From the NCBI GenBank assembly GCA_046590675.1, contig JBKJUP010000022.1:6961-70960 (forward strand): a stretch of DNA of 64,000 nucleotides, in the 5' to 3' direction. Below the pieces are notes generated by a model, which worked only from the letters and a program-made list of their open reading frames with translations, made no database searches and had not been told where the DNA came from. The position numbers and the translations under genes were made by a program. Each line of letters opens with the position of its first letter. Position 1 is the stretch's first letter. This DNA comes from Ferruginibacter sp. (GTDB taxonomy: Bacteria; Bacteroidota; Bacteroidia; Chitinophagales; Chitinophagaceae). Positions 43,888 to 59,010 of the stretch are shown piece after piece.

Positions 43888-46809
43888 TTACTTTAATAAT
43901 CCATCTAAAGTAATGGCAACATAATAAAGGGCACCAATGGTTGGACCGCCGGCATATTGAATGTTGCGGTTGTTTAAAATATTAGTGCCACCAAATTTTA
44001 TAGTGGTTTTTGCAGCCGGCATTCTATAGGTTATTTGAGCATCTATATTATTGATGGCATCAATCCGGCCTGTAACCAATGGACTTTCCCATAAAAAGCT
44101 ATCCTGCCATTTCCACACGATGTTAAACCCAACATGCGTTGATATAGCCCTGTTTCCAAACGATAAATTGGATGTGTATTTAGGCGTATTAAACCCCGTT
44201 ATAAAAAGATCTTTTGTTGCATTTGTCTTTATGTTGTTGTAATTGAAATTACCAGATAGCGTAAAGGTTTTGTAAATATTATAGGTGATACCAGCGGAGG
44301 AACCGTAACTGGTGTATTTATTATTTGCATTTGTATAAACCCTATAACGCTCCTGTCCTTTGCTGGCAGCATTGCCTCCGGATGCTGCAGTAGCGTCCCT
44401 GTTGCGATCAATCATGGCGATGATGGCTGCATCAGACCCTATCTTTTCATCAATGGGTACATACACCTGTACTTGACCTAAAAAGCCATCATAAATATTT
44501 GTGTAAGCATCTATATCAATAAACACTTTGTTGTTGAATAAAGAACCTTTATAGCCTACTTCAAATGAGTTGATGCCTTCCGGCCTGCCATTGGGCAAGT
44601 TACCCGGTTGCAACAGATTCCTGTTTTGTAATGCTGCAGCATCCGTATTACCAGCCAGTTTAACCGCCGCATTAAATGCAGCCACACTTGATTGCGTGTA
44701 ACTGTTTTCACGATACCCAAGGCCTTCATCAATAACCGGCAAAATGCCTACCCTCTTTACCCTGCCATTGTTTACATAAGACAATGCTTCAAACAATGCC
44801 GGAAAGCGATAGCCCTGTTGAAAGGTAAAACGAAAATTATGCCGTTGCTTAACCGTATAAACTGCGGCTATCCTTGGTGTAAGTTTGGCAGAAAATTCAG
44901 GGTTGTAATCAGCCCTGAGTGATCCCCATAACTTCAGTTTTTCTTTAAAGAAAGTTTTTGTGAGTTGTGCAAATCCTCCGATTTTTTTATAATAAATATT
45001 TTCCCCGAAACTGCCATCGGTTAATGCTGTATTTCTATCTGCAACCGAACGTTTAAAGTCAACAAAATTATTTCCATCCGGAATAACCTGGTATAATCTT
45101 GCATCAGCACCTACTAACAACGTAAAATATTTAACCAGTTTGGTTAGATCCAATTGTCCTTCTACATGATATAGGTTACTCTTTTGTACAAGCGCAGCAC
45201 CACCGGTTACTGGTGCGTTGGGAATGGTGGCAGATTTAATATCCCAATTATTGATGTGAATAATAGAATCCCTTACTGTATTAAATCTTGCGGTACCTGC
45301 TTCTACCCTGCCTGCATCTGCCTGTTCTCTTGCAAACAGCGACGCCGCCGCCAGGTTGCTACTGGTTAAGGCGCCTCCATGATCCATAGCGTAATTATTT
45401 AAAGCAGCTTTGTACTTATTGCCCCATACAGATGCACTACCGCCGGTATATAGATCAAGGTTGTCTGCCAATGGTTTTACATTATACGAGTCGCCGGAAT
45501 TTTCATGGGAAGTATATGCCTTGACGGTAAAATTGCTTCCCTTCAATTCCAACTGGTGATTTTGCACAACTACATTATCCAGCTTAATTTTATTGCCCCG
45601 TTGAAATACACCATCCATTTTTCCTACCCGATAACTATAGTTTAATTGTGTACCGCCATTGAATTTATAAACAAATGCTGCATCCAGTTTTAAATTATCC
45701 ACTTTGGGATTTACCAGGTCTTTCTCCCAATAACCCGTGCGACTTACCGTTAGTGTTTTATTTGGTGATCCATCTATATTCAATCCTGTTACTGATATGG
45801 TATTACTACCCGCCAATGCATCGTCGCCATATTTGTTCCAGCCATCAAATGCAATATTGTTGGCTCCATTTAATGCGGTGTAATTTGGGTTAGCAGTATT
45901 GTGTGTATTTGGATTCTGATCAAGCCGTGAATCAGAAATCCAGTCTGTACCCTGCATATAGCCTGCATTTATTTTAAAAGCAAACTTATTATTGAAAGCC
46001 TTTGCATAGCGTATAGCAGTTTCAGTTAGCAATGCCGGGGCATGGTCAGTTCCATCTACATGATTGATACCGGTTCTATGAAAAAGACTCAATCCCTGGG
46101 AAGTAAATGGATTCTTAGTAATAAGATTCGACATGCCATTAATGGCATTCATACCATATAACGCCGAAGCTGCACCAGGCGTAACTTCTATGCTTTGAAT
46201 ATCCAGCTCCGTGGGGCCAATCGCGTTGCCTAATGGAACACCCAAGGTTGCTGCCTGCATATCGATTCCATCTACCAGTTGCATAAAACGAAAATTATTA
46301 GGAATATTAAACCCACGGGTATTGGGCACTTTAAAGGTGATAGAAGATGTGGTAAGCTGTACACCTTTTACATTCCCCAATGCATCATAGAATGAAGCAG
46401 CCGGCGTTTCCTTCAATGACCGGACATCGAGTTTTTCGATGCTTACCGGCGACTTCGATATTTTTTCTGTACCCCTGCTGGCAGTAACTACCACTTCATT
46501 TGCAAGAAAGGTTTGAGTGGTTAACTGAATGGCAAGTTTTGTGTTGATGTTTTTGATTTCAATTTCCTGAGGGGCAAATCCTACTGAACTTATAATGATG
46601 GTAAAAGGAAATTTTTGATTAATCACCAACGAAAAATTTCCGGCAGAATCGCTGATCGTTCCTTTGCTTGCGCCTTTTACAGAAATGCTTGCGGCCGATA
46701 ATGGCTCATGATTTTCGCCGATCACCTTACCACTCAAAATAACAGTTCCATTTAATTGAGCGAATGATATTGCAGGTATAAATACAAAAATGATTAGTAA
46801 ATTTTTCAT
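43888..46809 (-). CDS. TonB-dependent receptor at the distal end of the cys cluster
   Basis: Signal peptide, CarbopepD_reg-like domain, plug (NTRGFN, GAASALYG), barrel; 973 aa. Confidence 0.88.
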   Translation of the reverse strand: MKNLLIIFVFIPAISFAQLNGTVILSGKVIGENHEPLSAASISVKGASKGTISDSAGNFSLVINQKFPFTIIISSVGFAPQEIEIKNINTKLAIQLTTQTFLANEVVVTASRGTEKISKSPVSIEKLDVRSLKETPAASFYDALGNVKGVQLTTSSITFKVPNTRGFNIPNNFRFMQLVDGIDMQAATLGVPLGNAIGPTELDIQSIEVTPGAASALYGMNAINGMSNLITKNPFTSQGLSLFHRTGINHVDGTDHAPALLTETAIRYAKAFNNKFAFKINAGYMQGTDWISDSRLDQNPNTHNTANPNYTALNGANNIAFDGWNKYGDDALAGSNTISVTGLNIDGSPNKTLTVSRTGYWEKDLVNPKVDNLKLDAAFVYKFNGGTQLNYSYRVGKMDGVFQRGNKIKLDNVVVQNHQLELKGSNFTVKAYTSHENSGDSYNVKPLADNLDLYTGGSASVWGNKYKAALNNYAMDHGGALTSSNLAAASLFAREQADAGRVEAGTARFNTVRDSIIHINNWDIKSATIPNAPVTGGAALVQKSNLYHVEGQLDLTKLVKYFTLLVGADARLYQVIPDGNNFVDFKRSVADRNTALTDGSFGENIYYKKIGGFAQLTKTFFKEKLKLWGSLRADYNPEFSAKLTPRIAAVYTVKQRHNFRFTFQQGYRFPALFEALSYVNNGRVKRVGILPVIDEGLGYRENSYTQSSVAAFNAAVKLAGNTDAAALQNRNLLQPGNLPNGRPEGINSFEVGYKGSLFNNKVFIDIDAYTNIYDGFLGQVQVYVPIDEKIGSDAAIIAMIDRNRDATAASGGNAASKGQERYRVYTNANNKYTSYGSSAGITYNIYKTFTLSGNFNYNNIKTNATKDLFITGFNTPKYTSNLSFGNRAISTHVGFNIVWKWQDSFLWESPLVTGRIDAINNIDAQITYRMPAAKTTIKFGGTNILNNRNIQYAGGPTIGALYYVAITLDGLLK

Positions 46810-46915: not shown

Positions 46916-46951
46916 TTACCGACAACATCGGTTTAGTAGCAGACGTCTCAT
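46916..46951 (-). CDS. Putative Cys-Cys leader peptide upstream of the TonB receptor
   Basis: MRRLLLNRCCR* (TGT TGT), 14 nt downstream of operator motif, 106 nt upstream of receptor ATG. Confidence 0.5.
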   Translation of the reverse strand: MRRLLLNRCCR

Positions 46952-46965
46952 AAAGAAGTTTAAAA

Positions 46966-46984
46966 GTCTATAATTTTAATGGAC
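46966..46984. promoter_or_regulatory. cys-cluster palindromic operator, copy 1
   Basis: GTCTA-TAATTTTAA-TGGAC. Confidence 0.6.
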
Positions 46985-47012
46985 TAATTAAGTAAAAAAA
47001 TAGTTAGGGTAG

Positions 47013-48566
47013 TTACATAATATGCATGATTGCTTTAAACAAAGTATTAATACTGGTTAAAATAACCAATGCACCAACAGCTATAAACATCGTTTTCATA
47101 GGTAGCTTACCAACCAGTCTTGCGGCAATGGGCGCTGCAATTAAACCTCCCAGTATCAAGCCTGCAACTTCAAGGATAGGTATGGTTTTTAACAATATAA
47201 AAAATGTGATTGAACTCGTAAGCACTACGAAAAATTCCGCCAGGCAAACTGATCCAATTACATACCGTGGACTTCTGCGCTTAGCCATTAGCGTGCTGGT
47301 TACCAGAGTACCCCAGCCACCACCGGCAAATGCATCCATAAAACCACCCACTGATGCAAGCCATCCTGCCTTCTTCACTTTATCCAGTTGATTCCTTTTG
47401 GCAAATGCTTTTCTTATTATAAAATAGCCAAGATAGAGGGTGTAAAAACATAGTGGTATGCGGATATACTCGGTAATTCTTTGTCCGAAAAAAGCACAGG
47501 CAGCACCAATGATGGCACCAATTACGCCGGGTATTACCAGTGTTTTAAATAATTTTTTATTGATGTTCCCAAAACGATGGTGGCTGTACCCGGAAACCCC
47601 ACTGGAGAATACCCTGGCCGAATGCACCTGGCTACTCACAAGCGCCGGGTTAACGCCATAAGCCAATAAGAAAGTTGTGGAAATCGTACCATAGCCCATA
47701 CCCAACGACCCGTCAGCCATCTGTGCTAAAAACCCAATGACCAGCATCAGCAAAAAAGCCTGTTTATCAAACTTAAATGGAAGCGATGAAAAACTTTCGG
47801 CCATTTGATGAAACGGTACCATCGACAATATACCATGTCCAATAATCATTAATAAAAAAGCCAGCAGGCACCACATTACAATCTTTGGCCATTTTTTTTG
47901 CTCCGGTTTATTAATCGTTTGCAAATTGGCTTGTTTGGAAACCAATACTGTTGTGAGGCTGTTTAACTGTTTTACTTTTTCATCAAAATCGCCGTTGATA
48001 TTGCCGCGGATCGCCTGGATATTGTTGAGCACATTCTCCATTTCATCCGGTATCAAATTTCCGATTACTTCTTTTAAGCGCTTGGCAATGGTGGGTGATT
48101 TACCGTTCGTAGATATCGCTATTTTAATGCTTCCTTTTTGAACAACAGAACTAAGATAAAAATCACACAGATCAGGCTTATCAGCCGCATTAATCAACTT
48201 CCCCTTTGCTTTTGCATCGATGGTTACCTGTTCGCTCACTACCCTGTCATTCACTGCTGCTATCACAAGATCAGCTCCATCAATATCGCCGGATTCATAC
48301 CGTCTTTCTATTAATTGTATCCTGGGATTAGTGGCCACGATGGCACGAATGGCATCACTTATTTCAGGTGCCACCAGTTTTACATTTGCTTCCGGAGAAT
48401 TTTGTAATACAGCCGTTAATTTTTCTAACCCAACATATCCACCGCCAACAATCAACAGTTGCAATTTATCCAACTTAAGAAATATTGGAAACAACGGATT
48501 GATAGCCGCTATGTCTTCAACAGGGTCCATACCCGACTGTTCCAAAATTGTTCTTTTAACATCCAT
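47013..48566 (-). CDS. Fusion of siroheme synthase dehydrogenase/ferrochelatase (CysG-B) domain with TauE/SafE (TSUP) transporter
   Basis: LFPIFLKL, VGGGYVG, NAADKPDLCDFY, ISTNGKSP; then ADGSLGMGYG, GGGWG TSUP motifs. Confidence 0.88.
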   Translation of the reverse strand: MDVKRTILEQSGMDPVEDIAAINPLFPIFLKLDKLQLLIVGGGYVGLEKLTAVLQNSPEANVKLVAPEISDAIRAIVATNPRIQLIERRYESGDIDGADLVIAAVNDRVVSEQVTIDAKAKGKLINAADKPDLCDFYLSSVVQKGSIKIAISTNGKSPTIAKRLKEVIGNLIPDEMENVLNNIQAIRGNINGDFDEKVKQLNSLTTVLVSKQANLQTINKPEQKKWPKIVMWCLLAFLLMIIGHGILSMVPFHQMAESFSSLPFKFDKQAFLLMLVIGFLAQMADGSLGMGYGTISTTFLLAYGVNPALVSSQVHSARVFSSGVSGYSHHRFGNINKKLFKTLVIPGVIGAIIGAACAFFGQRITEYIRIPLCFYTLYLGYFIIRKAFAKRNQLDKVKKAGWLASVGGFMDAFAGGGWGTLVTSTLMAKRRSPRYVIGSVCLAEFFVVLTSSITFFILLKTIPILEVAGLILGGLIAAPIAARLVGKLPMKTMFIAVGALVILTSINTLFKAIMHIM

Positions 48567-48629
48567 AAATTCCGAAAAAATTGCCTGAAAATATTTTAAA
48601 GTAATTAGATCTCAGCGAAGATATCTATT

Positions 48630-48648
48630 CTCTACCAAATTAATAGAC
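48630..48648. promoter_or_regulatory. cys-cluster palindromic operator, copy 2
   Basis: CTCTA-CCAAATTAA-TAGAC. Confidence 0.65.
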
Positions 48649-48712
48649 TAATCAATATTATTTTTTTATGCCACCATTTTGGCTGCCCTTTTTGATCAAT
48701 AAACAAGCGCTT

Positions 48713-50374
48713 TTAATGTTGGATATAGGTGCGATTGGTAAAGTCGCCGAATGTTTCATTGGCAGATCGATTGCTAACAAAGGATGTAAATAATGTATCT
48801 AATTCACCAAGGATGCTGTGCTCTTCCAGGTTTTCTTTGAACAAGGTATTTAATCTTTGTCCTTCATTATCGCCACCAATGTGCAGGTTGTATCTACCCG
48901 GCCCGGTACCCACCAAACCAATTTCCGCCGCATAAGGTCTGCCGCATCCATTGGGACATCCCGTCATTCGCATGATGATATTTTCCTGCTCCAGTTGGTG
49001 CTTTACAAGTAAAGGTTCTATTTTAGAAATCAGTGATGGCATGTAACGCTGTGCCTCTGCCAATGCCAGCGGGCAGGTTGGTAAGGCCACACAGGCAATC
49101 GCATTTTTACGAATTGCAGAAGCCGCCGCTGTATGTTCCAGTATATTAAACTTCGCTAAAATATCATTGATGGCATCTTTATCTTCCGGTGCCACATCGC
49201 TGATAATCATATTTTGATTGGCGGTAAACATAAAGCTTGCCTTACCGGTTTTTGCAACTTCATTCAGGGCCGTTTTCAAGGCAATCGTTTCGTCGTCCAG
49301 CACACGGCCATTTTCTATAAACAAAGTGTAATACCAACGTCCTTCATGGTTTTGTTCCCAGCCATAATTATCAACACGGCGTTTAAATTCGTAAGGCCTT
49401 GCAGGTTCCATTGCAAAACCTGTACGTTGCTCAACTTCTTCTTTATACTTATCCATTCCAAGCCTGTCCACCGTATATTTCAACCTGGCCAGTTTGCGAT
49501 CGCTCCTGTTGCCAAAGTCACGCTGAACGGTCAATATTTCATAAACTGTCTTAAGCACTTTTTCTTCTGTGTCAACAAACCCCATTACTGTAGCCAGCCT
49601 GGCGTAGGTCTCCTGGTTACCATGTGTAGTTGATAATCCACCGCCTATCGCAACGTTAAATCCTTTCAATTCATTGTCTTCAATAATAGCAATCAGGCCA
49701 ATATCATTGGCAAAAACATCTACGTCATTATTGGGCGGAATGCCAATTCCAATTTTAAATTTACGCGGCATATAACTATCCCTGTATAACGGATCTTCTT
49801 CTATTTTTTTGTCGGCCACCTTTTCTTCATCCAGCCATATTTCGTAGTATGCTTTTGTTTTGGGCATCAACATCGAACTAATCTTGTCTGCAAAAGCAAA
49901 CACCTTGGCATGCAGAGGCGATTCATTGGGGTGAGCACTGCAGGTAACGTTGCGGTTAATGTCGCCGCAGGTTGCAATACTATCCAGCTTTGCCTCATTA
50001 AAAGCCTGGATGGTTGGCTTTATTTTCGACTTAATGATACCATGCAGTTGTATTGTTTGGCGGGTGGTAATTTTAATAACGCCGGTCGAATTTTCACCAG
50101 CCACATCATTTACAGCCAGCCATTTTTCGGCTGATATAAAACCACCGGGCAGGCGTAAACGAATCATGTAGCTGTAAAGCCGGTCAAGTTTTTTTGTGGC
50201 ACGTTCTTCCCTGCGATCCCTGTTGTCCTGCTGGTACATCCCGTGAAACTTAATCAGCGCCTGGTCGTCTTCACGAATGGCGCCTGTTATTTCATCCTGC
50301 AAACTTTCCCTGATGGTGCCACGCAGTGCGTTACTCTCAACTTTAATTTTTTCTATTGCTGATAATTTTGACAT
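48713..50374 (-). CDS. cysI: Sulfite reductase hemoprotein subunit
   Basis: KFHGMYQQD, CGDINRNV, PRKFKI, CVALPTC, GCPNGC; start at MSKLSA. Confidence 0.95.
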   Translation of the reverse strand: MSKLSAIEKIKVESNALRGTIRESLQDEITGAIREDDQALIKFHGMYQQDNRDRREERATKKLDRLYSYMIRLRLPGGFISAEKWLAVNDVAGENSTGVIKITTRQTIQLHGIIKSKIKPTIQAFNEAKLDSIATCGDINRNVTCSAHPNESPLHAKVFAFADKISSMLMPKTKAYYEIWLDEEKVADKKIEEDPLYRDSYMPRKFKIGIGIPPNNDVDVFANDIGLIAIIEDNELKGFNVAIGGGLSTTHGNQETYARLATVMGFVDTEEKVLKTVYEILTVQRDFGNRSDRKLARLKYTVDRLGMDKYKEEVEQRTGFAMEPARPYEFKRRVDNYGWEQNHEGRWYYTLFIENGRVLDDETIALKTALNEVAKTGKASFMFTANQNMIISDVAPEDKDAINDILAKFNILEHTAAASAIRKNAIACVALPTCPLALAEAQRYMPSLISKIEPLLVKHQLEQENIIMRMTGCPNGCGRPYAAEIGLVGTGPGRYNLHIGGDNEGQRLNTLFKENLEEHSILGELDTLFTSFVSNRSANETFGDFTNRTYIQH

Positions 50375-50599
50375 AGTATTTTCAACCCTTTTGCCTAAGT
50401 CTCCCAAAGGAGTCCGTTCAACAGGCTGACCATTTTTGAATCATCCTGTGAGGCTTTGTTAATAATATTAATTCCAAATTTTCCCAGGCCCAAAGGGAAT
50501 CATTTAAACAGCTTTACTTTTAATTTCTGTAACCGTTAAGGCTTGCTTTATTTCAAATAATTAAAAAACCTTTTGTCCCGGCATTGCATCAATTTTCAT

Positions 50600-50624
50600 C
50601 TTCAGTGGCGTCGCACTCTTGTAC
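50600..50624 (+). repeat. Short dispersed repeat family A, copy 2
   Basis: CTTCAGTGGCGTCGCACTCTTGTAC. Confidence 0.8.
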
Positions 50625-50701
50625 AAAATATCATTACTGAACATTTTCCACCTCCCGTATAAATAACAATAACGTGGTAACAAATCCTTAAACTCCCCAT
50701 A

Positions 50702-50738
50702 GCCCTGCCCTCCTCTTCGGGGAGGATAAAGGTGGGGC
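50702..50738. repeat. REP-like hairpin (family C) just after cysJ stop
   Basis: GCCCTGCCCTCCTCTTCGGGGAGG...GGGGC. Confidence 0.55.
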
Positions 50739-50745
50739 AGCCTTT

Positions 50746-52458
50746 CTAATACACATCCTTCTCGTACCTGCCTGCGTGTTCCATTTGCTCCAGGTAATGT
50801 TTTGCTTCATCACCCGTTTTCTTTCCATGCTCCGCTATTATTCCCAACAATGTTTTTTCTACATCCACACTCATCGGATCTTTTTTACCGCACACAAAGA
50901 AAGAACCGCCGCCTTCCAGCCATTGAAACAATTCGGCACCATGCTGTTCCATTTTATGCTGCACATATAATTTCTCTTTCTGATCCCTGGAAAATGCAAG
51001 ATTCACATTTGTCAACACACCTGTTTCATACCAGTTTTGTATTTCTGTCTGGTATAAAAAGTCGGTAGCAAAATGTTGCTCCCCAAAAAACAGCCAGTTT
51101 CTACCGGTAGCGCCTGTCGCATCTCTTTCAGCAAGGAAAGAACGAAAGGCGGCAATGCCCGTACCCGGACCAACCATCACTACATCTTTCTCCGCAGCCG
51201 GTAAACGAAAGCGCTTGTTAGCCTGTACAAAAAAGTTTTGAGTACTTCCTTCTTTCAAATAACTTAAGTAGTCGGAGCAAAGCCCAAACTTCGTGTCGCC
51301 GTTAATGATATACTCGTCCTTTACCACCACAATATGTACTTCACCTTCGTGTGCAGCCGGTGAAGAGGCAATGGTGTAAAGCCTTGGCGACATAGCGTTC
51401 AGCTTAAGAATTATTTCTTCAAACTGGGCAACATCTTTTACAGGATATATTTTCAGCAGGTCGAGCAGGTTCATTTTAGTAGCAGGAATTTCCTGTTGCA
51501 CCGCATCCGCATATTGCTTTACCAACCTTTCTGTTAAATGAATGATATTGATTTTATACTTCAACAGGTCGAAAATTGTAACCTGCTCTTTTTTAAATTC
51601 TACTATTTTATTAGCATCAGCTCCGCTAACTGCAAGGATGGCTTCTACTTCCGCTGTAGGATTTTCCGGGTAAATACCGATGGAGTCACCACATATATAT
51701 TCTACTCCTTCCGCTTCAATTTCTATATGCCAGGTTTCTTTATTTGAACCATGATCGTTTAGGTTGATAGCAGAAAGCACTTTGCCGGTATATTTTTGCT
51801 TTCCGGCTTTTTTTGCAGGTACTTCAGTGGTCGGCGCTACTGCTACCGCTGCATCGGCTTGTTGTGAATGCAACAGTTGCATCACTTGCAGAAACCAGCC
51901 GTTTGCATCTTCTTCATATTCCACATCGCATTTTTGTAAAGGAGCGATTCTTTCGCCACCCAATTTCTTTAATTGCTCATCTACGTCTTCGCCGGTTTTG
52001 CAATAAAGCGGGTAAGATGTATCGCCCAATGCCAGCACACTATATTTTAATTTACTCAGCTTAAATCCATTTTGGTGAATGTGATCGTAAAATTTTTGTG
52101 CAGCAATCGGTGGTTCACCTTCACCCTGTGTGCTGATAACGGCCAATAAATATTCTTCCTTTGGTAAATCTGTTAACCGGTATTGATCCATGCCAACAAC
52201 TTTGGCGTGAATGTGATGCTGTTTTGCCTTGGTGGCAAATTCGGTTGCAAGCCTTTTGGAGTTACCTGTTTCAGTACCATATACAATGGTTATTTTATTT
52301 ACGGCCGGTGCCGCTGTAACTGTCGGCGCAATCGTGTCTGTTTTTGCAACCTGCGCCTGAACCATACCATTTAAGTACCCATTCATCCAAATCAATTCAT
52401 CCTTACTGGCTGTATTGATGAGATCAAGAAATACTTTAAATTTTGAATCTCCTAACAT
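50746..52458 (-). CDS. cysJ: Sulfite reductase flavoprotein subunit
   Basis: Flavodoxin GTETGNS, STQGEG, ALGD..Y; FNR RLYTIASS, GPGTGIAAFR, YVQH. Confidence 0.92.
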   Translation of the reverse strand: MLGDSKFKVFLDLINTASKDELIWMNGYLNGMVQAQVAKTDTIAPTVTAAPAVNKITIVYGTETGNSKRLATEFATKAKQHHIHAKVVGMDQYRLTDLPKEEYLLAVISTQGEGEPPIAAQKFYDHIHQNGFKLSKLKYSVLALGDTSYPLYCKTGEDVDEQLKKLGGERIAPLQKCDVEYEEDANGWFLQVMQLLHSQQADAAVAVAPTTEVPAKKAGKQKYTGKVLSAINLNDHGSNKETWHIEIEAEGVEYICGDSIGIYPENPTAEVEAILAVSGADANKIVEFKKEQVTIFDLLKYKINIIHLTERLVKQYADAVQQEIPATKMNLLDLLKIYPVKDVAQFEEIILKLNAMSPRLYTIASSPAAHEGEVHIVVVKDEYIINGDTKFGLCSDYLSYLKEGSTQNFFVQANKRFRLPAAEKDVVMVGPGTGIAAFRSFLAERDATGATGRNWLFFGEQHFATDFLYQTEIQNWYETGVLTNVNLAFSRDQKEKLYVQHKMEQHGAELFQWLEGGGSFFVCGKKDPMSVDVEKTLLGIIAEHGKKTGDEAKHYLEQMEHAGRYEKDVY

Positions 52459-52511
52459 TTTTGCAATTTTATTGATTTATGTTGTATGCTTTGTTCGCTT
52501 TGGTAAAGCGG

Positions 52512-53381
52512 TTATTGGTATTTATTAATTGAGTTGCTAAACTGTCCCAATTCATCACTCACTAATTTTTCAAACTGAAAATCTTCAACCGGTTTAAAAT
52601 ATTCTCCTGTTTGCATTGTATAATTTAACCAGGCAAATTTTTCATTTAAAGCCACTACCCTGCCGATGATTACCAGGGTGGGTGAAGCAAACATTCTACC
52701 TTTTAAATTTTGTTCGTATTCATATAAATTACTGGTGTGGATTTGTTGCATTGGTGTTGTAGCCTGTTCTATCACTGCCAGTAATTTATCGGCTGCAATA
52801 TTATTCTTCACCAGGTTTTCCACAACGCCATCAAGCGTTTCAGACGACATGTAAAAAACAAGGGTATCATCGGAATTAGCCAACTCTTTCCAATAAACTG
52901 CAGATACCACATCTGATTTATAAAATGTTAACAGCCTAACTGCAGTGGCGTATCCCCTTGCGGTAAGTGGCATTCCTGCGTAGGCTGCTGCACCCAATGC
53001 TGCCGTAACACCCGGAACTATTTCATAAGGAATATTGTTGGCTACAATTGCTTCCAGCTCGTCCAGTATGTTGGAGAAAATAGATACATCACCTCCTTTT
53101 AAACGCACTACCAGCTTGCCTTCCTGTGCAAACTGTACGATCAGTTCATTGATGCTTTTTTGTGGCGTGCTAAAACCCCGGCGGCATTGCTTGCCCACAT
53201 AAATAATTTCAGCCTTTTCATTGGCATAGGTTGCCAGTATTTCTTTGCTTACCAACCGATCGGTTAATATTACATCTGCCAGTTGAAGATAGCGGGCTGC
53301 CTTTACGGTTATTAATTCCGGATCGCCGCAGCCTGCACCTGCAAGTATTACTTTTCCTGTATGTAAAATATTGTTACTCAT
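52512..53381 (-). CDS. cobA: Uroporphyrinogen-III C-methyltransferase (CysG-A)
   Basis: GAGCGDPELITVKA, VRLKGGD, VPGVTAA. Confidence 0.92.
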   Translation of the reverse strand: MSNNILHTGKVILAGAGCGDPELITVKAARYLQLADVILTDRLVSKEILATYANEKAEIIYVGKQCRRGFSTPQKSINELIVQFAQEGKLVVRLKGGDVSIFSNILDELEAIVANNIPYEIVPGVTAALGAAAYAGMPLTARGYATAVRLLTFYKSDVVSAVYWKELANSDDTLVFYMSSETLDGVVENLVKNNIAADKLLAVIEQATTPMQQIHTSNLYEYEQNLKGRMFASPTLVIIGRVVALNEKFAWLNYTMQTGEYFKPVEDFQFEKLVSDELGQFSNSINKYQ

Positions 53382-53386
53382 TTTAA

Positions 53387-53405
53387 GTCTACTATTTTAG
53401 TAGAT
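53387..53405. promoter_or_regulatory. cys-cluster palindromic operator, copy 3
   Basis: GTCTA-CTATTTTAG-TAGAT, 5 nt upstream of cobA ATG and just after a cysK terminator-like hairpin (CCTGGCG/CGCCAGG). Confidence 0.65.
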
Positions 53406-53457
53406 TATATATTGATAAAAATACCTGGCGAATATTATGCAACCGCCAGGCCATTAT

Positions 53458-54369
53458 TTAAAATAATCCTTCGATGGATAAATATCTTTCACCGGTATCA
53501 TAATTGTAAGTCAACACTTTTGCTCCTGCCGGAATTTCAGCCAGCTTTTTAGCAACTGCGGCTAAAGATGCACCTGTTGAAATACCAACCAAAATACCCT
53601 CCTCTCTTGCGATGCGCTGTGCATAATCAAATGCTTCTTCCTTTGATACTGCGATGGTGCCATCTAACATGGCCGTATTAAGAATTGAAGGTACAAAGCC
53701 TGCTCCAATACCCTGTATGGGGTGAGGGCCGGGTGCACCACCAGCCAACACCGGTGACAGTTCCGGCTCTACTGCAAAAACCTTCAGGTTGGGAAAATGC
53801 TTTTTCAACACTTCTCCCACGCCGGTGATATGGCCACCGGTACCTACGCCAGTAATTAAATAATCAAGTCCGTCCGGAAAGTCATTGAGTATTTCCTGTG
53901 CTGATGTGGTGCGGTGTATTTCAGTATTTGCAGGATTGTCAAATTGCTGCGGCATCCATCCGTTTGGAATTTCTTTTTCAAGTTCACCCGCTTTTTCTAT
54001 GGCACCCTTCATACCTTTTTCACGGGGAGTTAATACAAACTCTGCTCCGTACAATGCCATTAAACGACGACGTTCAATGCTCATGCTTTCGGGCATTACC
54101 AAAATAATTTTATATCCTTTTACGGCAGCTACCATTGCCAAACCAATACCCGTGTTACCGGATGTAGGTTCAATGATAACGCTGTCTTTATGAAGTATTC
54201 CTTTTTGTTCTGCATCTTCAATCATTGCCAATGCAATCCGATCTTTGATACTGGCGCCCGGGTTTGTTTTTTCCAATTTGATCCACACTTCATTTTTATC
54301 GCCGAATAAATTATTGATCCTTACGTGTGGCGTGTTACCGATTGTTTCTAAAATATTATTTGCTTTCAT
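53458..54369 (-). CDS. cysK: Cysteine synthase A
   Basis: [34 protein letters not shown]. Confidence 0.95.
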
Positions 54370-54457
54370 CTTATGTATTTTACTCCTTATTTATTTTACC
54401 CGGAGTTCTTGATTTAGGAATGCTATTTTATTTTTTTATGTTGACAAATGGTATTCA

Positions 54458-54481
54458 GTACAAGTGTGCGACGCAACGAAG
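54458..54481 (-). repeat. Short dispersed repeat family A, copy 3
   Basis: Reverse complement CTTCGTTGCGTCGCACACTTGTAC. Confidence 0.7.
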
Positions 54482-54566
54482 CTGCTATAAAAAGCTACTG
54501 CCTGGTACCAAAATTTTTTAAACAATTATATCAATCAAACTAAATTTCTTTTTAGAAAATACCAAC

Positions 54567-55400
54567 CTAAATCACAAAATTCAATACATCCGGCAAAGGA
54601 TTTTTATCCCTGATACTTACCTCACTTTTATGATATACAATTGAGTGTGGCAACACACTATTGGTGAGCCAAACGTTTCCGCCAATTACGCTATCATGAC
54701 CAATAACCGTTTCACCACCGAGAATGGTTGCCCCGGAATATATGATCACATCGTCCTGAATTGTTGGATGCCTTTTTGTTTTGGCTTCGTCTTTATTTAC
54801 GCTCAATGCACCCAATGTAACGCCCTGGTAAATTTTTACATTGTCGCCAATCAATGCAGTTTCGCCAATTACAACACCGGTGCCATGATCAATAAAAAAT
54901 GACTCACCTATTTGAGCTCCCGGGTGAATATCAATACCCGTTTTACCGTGTGCATATTCTGCAAAAACCCTTGGCAAAATTTTCACCCCGGCCTTCCAAA
55001 GCTGGTGACTGAACCGATAAACCGCAGTAGCATAAAAGCCGGGATAAGCCACCAGCACCTCATCCAGCGATTCCGCAGCCGGATCAAATTTCATGATGGC
55101 CGCAGCATCCTTCAACAGTGCATCATAAATATTTTCGATTTCGTCAAAGAATTCGTTTGCTATTCGTTGCGTTTGATCGCCATCATTTACCACATCATAA
55201 ATTAATGTTGACAAATGACTTTTATACGATTCAAACTCCTTTGACATTTCATACGCTGATATTTTTTTTTGCTTTTCAGGTATGAATAAAAATTCAAAAA
55301 AGCCATCAATAAATTCCGTCGCCAATTCCTTGTCAGGAAAAGAACGGGCACATTGCTGGCGCTTTATATGCAGCTTATTAATAAAATTTTCGTTACTCAT
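54567..55400 (-). CDS. cysE: Serine O-acetyltransferase
   Basis: DPAA, YPGF.A, TGIDIHPGAQIG, IDHGTG, KRHPT. Confidence 0.93.
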   Translation of the reverse strand: MSNENFINKLHIKRQQCARSFPDKELATEFIDGFFEFLFIPEKQKKISAYEMSKEFESYKSHLSTLIYDVVNDGDQTQRIANEFFDEIENIYDALLKDAAAIMKFDPAAESLDEVLVAYPGFYATAVYRFSHQLWKAGVKILPRVFAEYAHGKTGIDIHPGAQIGESFFIDHGTGVVIGETALIGDNVKIYQGVTLGALSVNKDEAKTKRHPTIQDDVIIYSGATILGGETVIGHDSVIGGNVWLTNSVLPHSIVYHKSEVSIRDKNPLPDVLNFVI

Positions 55401-55451
55401 GTTGGTGGATGATTCGTTGTTAACTCAAAATAAAAAAAGATAAAATTAAAA

Positions 55452-56693
55452 CTATTGAATCATACAAGCTCCAACTGTTACATTGCTTGTTTCGTCTATT
55501 AAAATAGCTCCCCCATTTTCTCTCAATTTTTTATAAGAATCAAATGTAACAGGCGATGCCGTTTTTATTTTCACTTTTACGATATCATTCAACTGTGCCT
55601 GTTCCGGTGCCGGTTCTTTTAGCAAAGAGTTTACATCTAACTTATATTCTATTTCTTTTACAACAGCTTTTACTACCCTGCTGTTAATTTGCAACAGGTA
55701 TTTGTTTCCTTCTTTTAAAGGTTTGTTGCCCATCCAGCAAAGCAATACATCCAGTTCATTTTCTACCGAAGGCAGGTTATCGCTTTTTACAATTACATCA
55801 CCCCTGCTGATATCGATGTCGTCCTGCAGGTGAAGTACCACGCTTTGTGGCGCAAATGCTTCTGCTACTTCTTTGCCACCAATTTCTATATTACTAATTA
55901 CACTTGTTAACCCCGACGGTTGCACGACAATTGAATCGCCCTTTTTATAAATGCCACTGATTACTTTTCCGGCATAGCCGCGATAATCGTGCAATACCTC
56001 TGTTTGAGGACGGATTACATACTGAACAGGAAACCTGGCATCGGTATAATTGATGTCATTTTTAACCTCTACATTTTCCAACAGGTGCAATAAAGACTCG
56101 CCTTCGTACCACGGAAAATTAGGCGATTTTTCAACAATATTATCGCCATTGATTGCACTGATGGGAATATAGGTAATGTCTTTTAATCCCAGGGAAGTTG
56201 CCACGGCAGAATAGTCGATCACAATATTATTGAACACATCCTGCGAATTATTTACAAGATCCATTTTATTAATGGCTACTACTACATGCGGCATATCGAG
56301 CAATGAAGCAATGATTGAATGCCTTCTTGTTTGTTCTGAAACGCCATTGCGGGCATCAACCAATATTATTATAAGATCGGAGTTGGATGCGCCTGTAACC
56401 ATGTTACGTGTGTACTGCGTATGGCCTGGTGCATCTGCAATAATAAATTTGCGGCTGGGTGTAGAAAAATATTTATAGGCCACATCAATGGTGATGCCCT
56501 GCTCTCTTTCTGCACGCAATCCGTCTGTTAATAAAGCCAGGTCAATTTCGCCGTCGGTTTTATTCTTACTTTGTTTTTCGATTGCTTCCAACTGATCAAT
56601 CATGATGGATTTACTGTCGTACAATAAACGTCCGATCAAAGTGCTTTTTCCATCATCAACACTACCTGCGGTTATAAATCTTAAAATGTCCAT
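55452..56693 (-). CDS. cysN: Sulfate adenylyltransferase subunit 1 (no fused CysC)
   Basis: GSVDDGKSTLIGRLL, EREQGITIDVAY, DAPGH, NKMD. Confidence 0.95.
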   Translation of the reverse strand: MDILRFITAGSVDDGKSTLIGRLLYDSKSIMIDQLEAIEKQSKNKTDGEIDLALLTDGLRAEREQGITIDVAYKYFSTPSRKFIIADAPGHTQYTRNMVTGASNSDLIIILVDARNGVSEQTRRHSIIASLLDMPHVVVAINKMDLVNNSQDVFNNIVIDYSAVATSLGLKDITYIPISAINGDNIVEKSPNFPWYEGESLLHLLENVEVKNDINYTDARFPVQYVIRPQTEVLHDYRGYAGKVISGIYKKGDSIVVQPSGLTSVISNIEIGGKEVAEAFAPQSVVLHLQDDIDISRGDVIVKSDNLPSVENELDVLLCWMGNKPLKEGNKYLLQINSRVVKAVVKEIEYKLDVNSLLKEPAPEQAQLNDIVKVKIKTASPVTFDSYKKLRENGGAILIDETSNVTVGACMIQ

Positions 56694-56697
56694 ATTA

Positions 56698-56822
56698 GCC
56701 CCTGTCCCTTAAAGGGGAACTTAGTTTTGCACAGTATTAAATTTGTTTAAAATACTGCTGGTTAAAAATATTAATCTCGTAGTTAGCCTAAGCTTGCCTT
56801 CCCCTCTTTAGGGTTGTGGGCT
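56698..56822. repeat. Two oppositely oriented REP-like hairpins (family C) in cysD-cysN spacer
   Basis: GCCCCTGTCCCTTAAAGGGGAAC at 56698 and CCTTCCCCTCTTTAGGGTTGTGGGC at 56797. Confidence 0.55.
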
Positions 56823-56829
56823 TCCGGGC

Positions 56830-57783
56830 TTAAAAATAACCACCCTTTTTTCTATCTTCCATTGCTGCTTCACTTACACGATCATCAATTCTTGTTTCGC
56901 CGCGTTCGCTGGTTTTAGTTGCAATAATTTCCTTAATGATATCATCAATGCTATCTGCACTGGATTCTACGGCAGCAGTACAGGTCATATCGCCAACGGT
57001 TCTGTATCTTACTTTTTTAATTGATATTTTATCCGTTTCATCCAACTGAATAAATTTGGAAGTGGCCACTAATTGTCCCTGGTATTCCAGCACTTCCCTG
57101 TCGTGTGCAAAATAGATAGATGGTAACTCAATTTTATTTCTGCGGATATAATTCCAAATGTCCAGTTCTGTCCAGTTGCTGATTGGGAAAACCCGTACAT
57201 TTTCACCCTTATGAATTCTGCCATTGTAAGTGTTCCATAATTCGGGGCGTTGCAGTTTTGGATCCCACTGGCCAAACTCATCTCTTACAGAAAAAATTCT
57301 TTCCTTCGCTCTTGCCTTTTCTTCATCTCTGCGGGCACCGCCAATACATGCATCAAATTTAAATTCTTCAATGGTGTCGAGCAGGGTAAAAGTTTGCAAC
57401 GCATTGCGGCTGGCAAACTTTCCTTTTTGTTCGGTAAGGTGTTTTTCTTTGATGGTATCTTCTACGTTTCTAACAATCAGTTTTTCACCAATTTCAGCTA
57501 CAAATGAATCCCTGTAATCAAGTGCTTCCTGGAAATTATGACCGGTGTCAATATGTACCAGGGGAAAAGGAAATTTACCCGGACGAAATGCTTTCAATGC
57601 CAGGTGAACTAATACGATTGAATCTTTACCACCGGAAAACAATAAAGCCGGACGTTCAAACTGCCCCGCTACTTCCCTGAATATGTGGATCGATTCTGAT
57701 TCCAGTTGATCAAGGTAATCGAGGTAATGAACACCTACTCCGGAAACCTTGTTACCCTTATCTTCTACTCCTTCTGTTGACAT
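56830..57783 (-). CDS. cysD: Sulfate adenylyltransferase subunit 2
   Basis: LFSGGKDS, HIDTGHNF, GGARRDEEKARAKER, RYRTVGD. Confidence 0.96.
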   Translation of the reverse strand: MSTEGVEDKGNKVSGVGVHYLDYLDQLESESIHIFREVAGQFERPALLFSGGKDSIVLVHLALKAFRPGKFPFPLVHIDTGHNFQEALDYRDSFVAEIGEKLIVRNVEDTIKEKHLTEQKGKFASRNALQTFTLLDTIEEFKFDACIGGARRDEEKARAKERIFSVRDEFGQWDPKLQRPELWNTYNGRIHKGENVRVFPISNWTELDIWNYIRRNKIELPSIYFAHDREVLEYQGQLVATSKFIQLDETDKISIKKVRYRTVGDMTCTAAVESSADSIDDIIKEIIATKTSERGETRIDDRVSEAAMEDRKKGGYF

Positions 57784-57802
57784 ATAATAGTTTTAAAATA
57801 AT

Positions 57803-58543
57803 TTAAGCTTTTATGGTAAGGTTACTCTTTTCGTCATGCACATGTAAGCCGCATTCTTTTTTATCGGCATCTTCCCACCACCATCTTCCAGCCCTGAAAT
57901 CTTCGCCCGGTTGAATGGCTCTTGTACAAGGCGCACAACCAATGCTTACAAATCCACGATCGTGCAAAGGATTATAAGGCACCCTGTTTTTTTGAATATA
58001 ATTTTTCACATCCTCTGTCGTCCAGTTGATGATGGGATGATATTTTATTACCTGGTTCAACTCGTCCCATTCCAACATGGGCAGATCTTTTCTATCTGAA
58101 GAATGTTCAGCTCTTAAACCTGTTACCCAAATTGCGTTACCGGCAAGCGCCCTTTTAAGCGGTTCAACTTTGCGGATACCACAGCATGATTTCCTGTTGG
58201 CGACTGACTCATAAAATGAATTGGGACCGTTGGCCTCTACAAAATTTTGCAGTGCATCCTGGTTGGGATAGTATGCTTTAATGTTAGTTTGGTACATGGC
58301 GTTGGTGCTGCTCCAAACAGAATATGTTTCGGCAAACAGACGGCCAGTATCTAATGTAAAAATTTTTACAGGTAACTTATTGCTTAAAATCTCATGAGAG
58401 ATCACCTGGTCTTCAAAACTAAAACTGGTGGAGAATGTAACTTTTCCCGGAAATTTTTCTGTCAATACTTTTAAAAATGAAGATATGCTTAGTCCACCTG
58501 ACTGGTGGAGTAATTGAGCGATGTTTTGTTGTTGTTGATTCAT
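57803..58543 (-). CDS. cysH: APS/PAPS reductase, 4Fe-4S (APS-reductase) type
   Basis: LDTG, CCGIRKVEPL, SIGCAPCT, RAGRW, ECGLH. Confidence 0.93.
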   Translation of the reverse strand: MNQQQQNIAQLLHQSGGLSISSFLKVLTEKFPGKVTFSTSFSFEDQVISHEILSNKLPVKIFTLDTGRLFAETYSVWSSTNAMYQTNIKAYYPNQDALQNFVEANGPNSFYESVANRKSCCGIRKVEPLKRALAGNAIWVTGLRAEHSSDRKDLPMLEWDELNQVIKYHPIINWTTEDVKNYIQKNRVPYNPLHDRGFVSIGCAPCTRAIQPGEDFRAGRWWWEDADKKECGLHVHDEKSNLTIKA

Positions 58544-58604
58544 TTTTAAGTGTAAAATTGTTGGAGAAAAAATACCGGAGAAAATGATTTGACTTACTTG
58601 CTTA

Positions 58605-58667
58605 TCAGCAGCAGCGAATGGAGCTGCAACACTTGCACATATACATTATTTGAGGATTTGAAGCCAT
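58605..58667 (-). CDS. Cys-rich leader peptide of the cys operon
   Basis: MASNPQIMYMCKCCSSIRCC* (5 Cys in last 10 codons), tandem stops TGA TAA, 61 nt upstream of cysH. Confidence 0.75.
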   Translation of the reverse strand: MASNPQIMYMCKCCSSIRCC

Positions 58668-58679
58668 ATATTTATATAA

Positions 58680-58698
58680 GTCTATAGAATTAGTAGAC
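58680..58698. promoter_or_regulatory. cys-cluster palindromic operator, copy 4
   Basis: GTCTA-TAGAATTAG-TAGAC, overlapping the -7 element by 1 nt. Confidence 0.75.
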
Positions 58699-58705
58699 AA
58701 ATATA
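58698..58705 (-). promoter_or_regulatory. -7 promoter element of the cys operon
   Basis: Minus-strand TATATTTG exact TAnnTTTG match. Confidence 0.7.
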
Positions 58706-58981: not shown

Positions 58982-59010
58982 AAAAAGCCACGGATCTCTC
59001 CGTGGCTTTT
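58982..59010. terminator. Terminator after lipA
   Basis: AAAAGCCACGG-ATCTCT-CCGTGGCTTTT. Confidence 0.85.

Follow-up and report, generated by a model that had tools for sequence, protein, structure and literature searches.

Palindromic sites at a Ferruginibacter sulfate-assimilation cluster and a candidate four-cysteine Rrf2 regulator

Four palindromes upstream of sulfate-assimilation genes

The window analysed here is a stretch of 64,000 nucleotides from a contig of Ferruginibacter sp. (assembly GCA_046590675.1), in which a cluster of sulfate-assimilation genes, read from the minus strand, is accompanied by four copies of the palindrome GTCTA-N9-TAGAC, one upstream of each of four predicted regulated units. 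The first unit, cysHDNEK (53458..58543), comprises cysH of the adenosine 5'-phosphosulfate (APS) reductase type (57803-58543), cysD (56830-57783), cysN (55452-56693), cysE (54567-55400) and cysK (53458-54369); each gene was assigned by an NCBIfam match, and the operon is predicted from gene order and spacing. The second unit, cobA-cysJ(I) (48713..53381), contains cobA for uroporphyrinogen-III C-methyltransferase (52512-53381), cysJ (50746-52458) and cysI (48713-50407), and the 339-bp gap between cysJ and cysI holds no operator. The third (47013-48566) encodes a siroheme synthase N-terminal domain (SirC-like) fused to a TauE/SafE anion permease (TIGR01470, PF01925, PF13241), and the fourth (43888-46809) a TonB-dependent receptor with CarboxypepD_reg and Plug domains and a SusC-like N-terminus, for which no SusD partner was seen. 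Just 3' of the cysK stop codon lies a hairpin (53417..53450, minus strand) with a 7-bp G+C stem (CCTGGCG/CGCCAGG) and a 13-nt loop followed by a T run, which is likely a terminator parting cysHDNEK from the cobA unit. The succession of this hairpin, its T run and the cobA operator suggests that cysHDNEK and cobA-cysJ(I) are two separate units; our terminator scan omitted the hairpin because its loop exceeds 8 nt.

Exactly four matches to the palindrome with at most one mismatch were found in the window, all of them intergenic. On the minus strand, the copy in the cysH promoter (58680..58698) reads GTCTACTAATTCTATAGAC and is a perfect palindrome, the one situated 5 nt ahead of the cobA start codon (53387..53405) reads ATCTACTAAAATAGTAGAC, the one upstream of sirC-tauE (48630..48648) reads GTCTATTAATTTGGTAGAG and the one upstream of the receptor gene (46966..46984) reads GTCCATTAAAATTATAGAC. 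An earlier note, made from the letters of the window alone, had given these four minus-strand readings and had seen no full copy elsewhere; the readings are correct, and there is no fifth match in the window at this stringency. In dinucleotide-preserving shuffles of the window (n = 100) we obtained a mean of 0.56 palindromes, and none of the 100 shuffles contained four or more copies. A weak match (GTCCACCTGACTGGTGGAG, plus strand, score 14.6-16.2 in the matrix described below) is also present at 58492-58510, in the cysH coding sequence within its first 50 nt, and may be an auxiliary site or chance.

The positions of the sites relative to promoter elements were then read from the sequence. The cysHDNEK unit is preceded by TATATTTG (58698..58705, minus strand), a -7 element of the TAnnTTTG type, which is the established -7 promoter consensus of Bacteroidota. 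The cysH palindrome abuts this box, the last G being common to both, and covers the expected start site, just as the earlier note had described. The tetranucleotide ATTA precedes both the sirC-tauE site and the receptor site. A scan for σ70-type promoters yielded 36 sites when 45 were expected, a model that is uninformative for Bacteroidota.

From 39 non-redundant sites in the genus we derived a 27-bp consensus, ATTAGTCTACtAAaTTaGTAGACTAAT, in which each half-site consists of GTCTAY and an AT-rich flank, so that the full site can be written ATTAGTCTAC-N7-GTAGACTAAT. The spacer is tAAaTTa; the YTAA that had been pointed out as common to the spacers of the four copies does consist of shared spacer letters but gives only a partial view of it. 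A site of 27 bp is typical in size of the operators of Rrf2 dimers, and the palindromes have the form expected of such operators, an inverted repeat of ~19-29 bp placed on core promoter elements. Each site could also fold into a stem of 5-6 bp closed by a 7-nt loop, which in the case of cysH would stand at the 5' end of the transcript, so that the palindromes might instead be nucleic-acid hairpins (an RNA 5'-end stem-loop, a processing or termination signal, or a DNA cruciform). However, the arms showed no co-variation: among the 39 sites, Watson-Crick complementarity at variable positions was no higher than in shuffles, and only one site had fully complementary 6-bp arms. Arms that deviate from the consensus independently favour protein half-sites and disfavour a hairpin. 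Moreover, the site at the peroxiredoxin gene described below, like that in the rrf2-to-prx arrangement, precedes the -7 box and would not be transcribed, and an Rfam search of 43-61 kb (E ≤ 1) matched no family, meaning that no riboswitch or known RNA accounts for the leaders or the palindromes. We therefore reject the hairpin explanation, which we consider highly improbable.

A fifth site next to an Rrf2-family gene and its conservation

We asked how specific the palindrome is to sulfur genes. In the whole 6.2 Mb assembly there were 26 matches with at most one mismatch, two of them perfect. With a symmetrised weight matrix, five sites scored 18.8-25.5 genome-wide while the next scored 15.3, and the lower scores fell mostly inside open reading frames (ORFs). 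The same top five, i.e. the four window sites and one more, were returned by a matrix derived solely from 12 sites in other genomes. This fifth site is a perfect palindrome, GTCTATCAAATAAGTAGAC, at C59:65759, in the 93-bp divergent region between a gene for a 1-Cys peroxiredoxin (prx) and a gene of the Rrf2 family (G000:C59:65819-66232; G000 is the source genome). The best intergenic match after these five, GTACATTAAATTTATAGAC (C29:13428-13446, outside the window, score 14.5-15.3), is located 28 bp ahead of the start of a gene for O-acetylhomoserine/O-acetylserine sulfhydrylase (TIGR01326, 649 bits), a probable extra member of the regulon as judged from this placement. The other matches with at most one mismatch (C8:14375, C24:72491, C27:2368, C63 and C82) had matrix scores of ≤15 and were located within ORFs, at ORF ends or ahead of unrelated genes. 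We also set aside as noise the weaker intergenic matches at C24:47789, C58:45824, C9:11064, C40:46832 and C78:154132, whose adjoining ORFs did not look sulfur-like when judged by eye with no family scan run. A matrix scan of the genome and of relatives had been named in the earlier note as a way to check its proposal, which would fail if hits were spread over the genome without enrichment at sulfur genes; our scan did not refute the proposal.

The palindrome recurs before cysH, cobA, sirC/tauE, the receptor gene and prx/rrf2 across nine further genomes of the same genus (G005, G007, G010, G011, G014, G019, G021, G022 and G024), and the spacer letters vary between species while the sites are kept, as expected of a phylogenetic footprint. 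It is present in the prx/rrf2 divergent region in G005, G007, G010, G011, G021 and G022, and directly after the TAnnTTTG -7 box of cysH in G005, G011, G014, G021 and G024. Sites before cobA, sirC/tauE and the orthologous receptor gene occur among G005, G011, G014, G021 and G024: the cysK- or cysN-to-cobA junction carries one in G021 and G014, sirC/tauE is preceded by one in G005, G011, G014 and G021, and an orthologous receptor (77-80% identity) has one or two upstream sites in G014, G021 and G024, and the site in G005 precedes the gene of a receptor that is less closely related (33% identity). In G019 rrf2 and cysH are divergently oriented, and in G018 and G001 the two genes are adjacent. Two further arrangements were observed in relatives, a strong site between an L-type amino-acid permease gene and a divergent TonB-dependent receptor gene (G004:C305:5252, L153) and three clustered sites upstream of a gene for an ExtI-like porin (G022:C21, L143 and L144); the permease, receptor and porin genes may belong to the regulon as genes for the uptake of sulfur sources.

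An AT-rich palindrome might in principle cluster by chance in AT-rich intergenic DNA, as the genome has 38.6% G+C and weaker matches do occur throughout it. The shuffles, the identical top five obtained from a matrix that excludes the source genome and, above all, the conserved position before orthologous genes in many species effectively refute this, and we give chance virtually no weight.

Beyond the genus, we examined 80 loci with Rrf2 orthologues of 60-89% identity from Chitinophagaceae, Chryseobacterium, Saprospiraceae and others. The best matches among named genomes point to a Ferruginibacter (Chitinophagaceae, Bacteroidota) as the source organism. The rrf2 orthologue adjoined prx, cysH, cysD, cysN or sirC-tauE in 51 of the 80 loci. 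In 38 of the 80, prx, cysH or sirC-tauE was the next gene on the same strand after rrf2, usually in the order prx-cysH-cysD-cysN, while rrf2 was divergent from prx in 11 and from cys genes in two. A CYAY-N7-RTRG palindrome was found in 48 of the 51 linked intergenic regions, compared to 1.5 expected from shuffles. A receptor gene comes next after cysD or sirC-tauE in three loci from other genera (L069, L076 and L091), two of which (L069 and L076) have a site immediately before the receptor gene. The 1-Cys peroxiredoxin gene heads an rrf2-prx-cysH-cysD-(cysN) string in many Chitinophagaceae (L069, L073, L076, L083, L086, L088, L089, L091, L093-L095, L097, L100, L109, L113 and L114), and this prx-first order suggests that the Prx-like protein may be coupled to APS reductase or to sulfite handling and not to peroxide defence alone.

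These loci also bear on the possibility that another factor binds the palindrome, for example a LysR-type protein like CysB or CysL, and that rrf2 is merely another of its targets. CTA-N9-TAG formally contains T-N11-A, the core of the LysR box, which would have dyad symmetry and adjoin a divergently transcribed LysR gene; LysR proteins control sulfate assimilation in Proteobacteria (CysB) and partly in Bacillus (CysL), and the rrf2-adjacent site also faces prx, so it could serve a regulator of prx. However, the palindrome stays with rrf2 where prx is absent, as in the Chryseobacterium loci with rrf2-to-cysH or rrf2-to-sirC-tauE order, and the 27-bp symmetric site fits the usual size of an Rrf2 operator. 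CysB of Proteobacteria is a functional analogue, in that one regulator coordinates cysDN, cysH, cysJI, cysK and sulfur-source uptake. It belongs to a family unrelated to Rrf2 and is an activator with N-acetylserine as inducer that acts at non-palindromic, multi-site promoters, and to our knowledge Bacteroidota lack CysB. Nothing indicated a CysB-like system here, and the gene that adjoins the sites is an Rrf2 gene and not a LysR gene, although no systematic search for LysR genes was made. We regard a LysR-type or other binding factor as very unlikely.

The co-occurrence of rrf2 with sulfite reductase was compared in 201 Chitinophagaceae genomes, of which 93 had both rrf2 and cysI, 51 had rrf2 only, six had cysI only and 51 had neither. 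Thus rrf2 was present in 93 of 99 cysI-positive versus 51 of 102 cysI-negative genomes (odds ratio 15.5, Fisher p = 8e-13, ignoring phylogeny). A second class of four-cysteine Rrf2 proteins, ~50% identical to the first and with the spacing C-X8-C-X2-C-X5-C, was seen in other Chitinophagaceae, at a distance of ~2 kb from cysI genes of a divergent type (46-48% identity), at G055:C14:607622-611848, G056:C15:20735-25144, G186:C12:149193-153308 and G187:C4:451069-455431. The whole four-Cys Rrf2 clade may be tied to sulfite reduction.

The Rrf2 protein and its proposed mode of action

The earlier note had named an Rrf2/CymR-like regulator as a plausible candidate and had stated that it is not encoded in the window. 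This agrees with what we found: of the three Rrf2 genes in the genome none is on the contig of the window, and one, the gene at C59, has a perfect palindrome in its own promoter region. The other two paralogues, both on C87, are of the IscR/NsrR type (C-X6-C-X5-C-X2-H) and have no palindrome upstream. The product of the C59 gene, a protein of 137 amino acids, is a bona fide member of the Rrf2 family, matching PF02082 with 106.4 bits (cut-off 30) over residues 2-135 and TIGR00738 with 97.7 bits (cut-off 73.3). Only the Rrf2 superfamily model was matched above its cut-off; the protein scored far below those of the models for CymR (NF047409, 55.8 versus 195 bits), IscR (TIGR02010, 57.6 versus 207.55; NF008110, 38.2 versus 275), NsrR (NF008240, 35.3 versus 182) and RirA (48.2 versus 193). 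An AlphaFold2 model with a mean predicted local distance difference test score (pLDDT) of 83 has an N-terminal winged helix-turn-helix and a long C-terminal dimerisation helix. In a fold search with this model the top 38 PDB matches were all Rrf2 proteins (CymR, NsrR, IscR and RsrR), the nearest being CymR of Bacillus subtilis (2Y75; template modelling score 0.81-0.87, 28% identity; also 3T8R), while by sequence the nearest solved relatives were an IscR-like protein of T. potens and CymR proteins.

The protein contains four cysteines in the arrangement C91-X8-C100-X2-C103-X4-C108, and all four are invariant in 81 orthologues. The spacing C-X8-C-X2-C-X4-C was found in 79 of 79 orthologues from named genomes, which have no conserved histidine. 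The invariant potential ligands are C91, C100, C103, E105 and C108; residue 8 is an invariant tyrosine and the C-terminus is variable.

We consider it quite probable that a single Rrf2-family repressor, a homodimer encoded at C59, has all four palindromes as its operators. More generally, sulfur assimilation in many Bacteroidota appears to be regulated by this four-Cys Rrf2 protein. Its binding to the palindromes we infer from the linkage of gene and site in the loci described above, together with the site in its own promoter region. Each half-site, GTCTAY with its AT-rich flank, would be contacted by one winged-helix domain of the dimer, and the bound protein would exclude RNA polymerase and so shut off cysHDNEK, cobA-cysJ(I), sirC-tauE and the TonB-dependent receptor gene; elsewhere in the genome it would repress the 1-Cys peroxiredoxin gene and its own gene, and probably that of O-acetylhomoserine sulfhydrylase. 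Autoregulation is suggested by the site in the promoter region of the regulator gene itself. This reading agrees with the dimeric repressor site that the earlier note had proposed.

Repression as the sign of regulation, and likewise the signal, are predictions from sequence. The same Rrf2 protein could instead be an activator or a dual regulator, like apo-IscR or the class II activators that bind near -35. In other genera with the rrf2-to-prx/cysH architecture the site stops 16-18 nt short of the -7 box and thus covers the -33 region, where class II activators can also sit, and in the rrf2-to-prx arrangement a site centred near -35 could in principle serve activation as well; IscR is a precedent of an Rrf2 protein with a dual function (PMC11672702). 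Activation is, however, hard to reconcile with the cysH site on the -7 box and start site and with the cobA site 5 nt from the ATG, and in the regulator's own promoter the site falls between the likely -33 and -7 elements. Taken together, the positions in this genome and in other genera favour repression, and an activating or dual role seems unlikely to us.

It is possible, and we propose it only tentatively, that the invariant C91-X8-C100-X2-C103-X4-C108 loop binds an iron-sulfur (Fe-S) cluster or another thiol-dependent cofactor and acts as the sensor of the signal. The loop would lie where other Rrf2 proteins hold their cluster. The holo-protein would bind DNA under sulfur sufficiency, and a shortage of cysteine or sulfide, or oxidants, would release it, so that sulfur assimilation and the peroxiredoxin would be induced. 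The presence of a peroxiredoxin in the predicted regulon fits the logic of a sulfur/redox sensor.

Several observations weigh against this proposal of a sulfur-responsive Rrf2 repressor. The Cys loop was modelled at a pLDDT of 52-70, so the geometry of a metal site is unsupported. The co-occurrence statistic for rrf2 and cysI is uncorrected for phylogeny, and the presence of rrf2 in the 51 genomes that have no sulfite reductase implies a role wider than sulfate reduction. Within the genus, cysH of G022 has no recognisable operator, and G014 has an Rrf2 gene with no operator before it.

Relation to known regulators and further features of the region

We compared the proposed system with characterised regulators. 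CymR, the Rrf2 master repressor of cysteine metabolism in B. subtilis and Staphylococcus aureus, shares with it the family, the class of pathway (genes for the acquisition of cysteine and sulfur) and the predicted repression through palindromic operators at promoters. In contrast to the C59 protein, CymR has, in the alignment, a deletion and no cysteines at the position of the invariant loop. CymR represses in a complex with CysK and senses O-acetylserine, which relieves the repression; nothing here indicates such a dependence, and in particular the C-terminus of the C59 protein is unconserved and no feature for CysK docking could be defined in the sequence. The cysK gene is itself in the predicted regulon. 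The operator sequence differs as well, the box bound by CymR being longer, less symmetric and AT-rich. Unlike the CymR regulon, the one predicted here spans the full sulfate-reduction pathway, siroheme synthesis, a TonB-dependent receptor and a peroxiredoxin, and it belongs to the phylum Bacteroidota. As proposed, the system is thus an Rrf2 repressor of sulfur metabolism like CymR, but one of another subfamily and phylum with its own operator, sensor motif and regulon.

IscR, NsrR, RirA and RsrR have the fold in common with the C59 protein, they carry their cluster cysteines in the same linker from the winged helix to the dimerisation helix (~residues 90-110), and their operators are similar in size and symmetry to the palindromes. 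The ligands differ, as IscR uses C-X5-C-X5-C-X2-H and the Fe-S type generally has three cysteines plus His, Asp or Glu, whereas the C59 protein has four cysteines in another spacing; position 8 is Asp in NsrR (Asp8, the fourth ligand) and Glu in RsrR but Tyr in the C59 protein. The targets also differ, being isc/suf, nitric oxide detoxification and iron uptake for those regulators and sulfur assimilation here. In Fe-S Rrf2 regulators the holo-form binds DNA and represses, and the characterised Rrf2 types either hold an Fe-S cluster with three cysteines plus His, Asp or Glu or have one or two reactive thiols (PMC11672702). As the Rrf2 types reviewed there (PMC11672702) include no four-cysteine loop with this spacing, we infer a candidate cluster- or thiol-based sensor of sulfur or redox state. 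In the searchable full-text literature we found no description of the regulator, the operator, the regulon or the control of sulfate assimilation in Bacteroidota.

Short leader ORFs are present downstream of two of the operators. Between the cysH operator and cysH, an ORF at 58605-58667 (minus strand) ends in a run of Cys codons (MASNPQIMYMCKCCSSIRCC*), and comparable Cys-rich cysH leader ORFs were seen in G005 (MTYTPCNINMHRIHCFTRKQCCC), G021 (MPQYLFIKCRCCCCCNRTE), G022 (MLFTASIMGMCNCCSIKVYCC), G011 and G024 (loci L025-L029). The Cys-rich leader looks like a second, cysteine-sensing layer of control by attenuation. G022 retains the leader despite having a cysH with no operator. Right after the receptor operator lies an ORF of 11 codons (46916-46951, minus strand; MRRLLLNRCCR*), whose Cys codons are inside a terminator-like hairpin (46932-46918, then a T run); another hairpin comes next, at 46872-46854.

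A broader and more speculative possibility, which we hold with less than even confidence, is that sulfur assimilation in Bacteroidota has its missing master regulator in the four-Cys (C-X8-C-X2-C-X4/5-C) Rrf2 clade. In this scheme a new all-cysteine Fe-S, thiol or persulfide module would read the sufficiency of sulfur or of Fe-S clusters and unite sulfate reduction, siroheme synthesis, outer-membrane uptake of sulfur sources and peroxide defence, and attenuation of transcription or translation by Cys-codon leader peptides would be added at cysH and possibly at the receptor gene. Our results put forward a specific candidate regulator, an operator of 27 bp and a small regulon, which are directly testable in cultivable Chryseobacterium or Chitinophaga. 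The TonB-dependent receptor and the TauE permease become candidate importers of sulfur sources, the conserved association between a 1-Cys peroxiredoxin and APS reductase raises a further question, and the operator model can improve the annotation of sulfur regulons in metagenomes of soil and freshwater Bacteroidota.

Finally, other repeats and hairpins were noted around these genes. G+C-rich palindromic elements (GGCCCCTAAAGGGGAG / CCCCTTTAAGGG) lie in the cysD-cysN gap (56700-56830), in the cysJ-cysI gap (50700-50745) and downstream of rrf2 (G000:C59 ~66240-66430). The element is present in tens of copies, CCCCTAAAGGGGA having 36 matches genome-wide with at most one mismatch, and the elements look like repetitive extragenic palindromic (REP)-like intergenic repeats. 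Two similar hairpins with 7-bp stems (58937-58921 and 58885-58869, minus strand), each followed by CCTGTTT, precede the cysH promoter, and further upstream of this pair is a strong bidirectional terminator after lipA (58983-59010).

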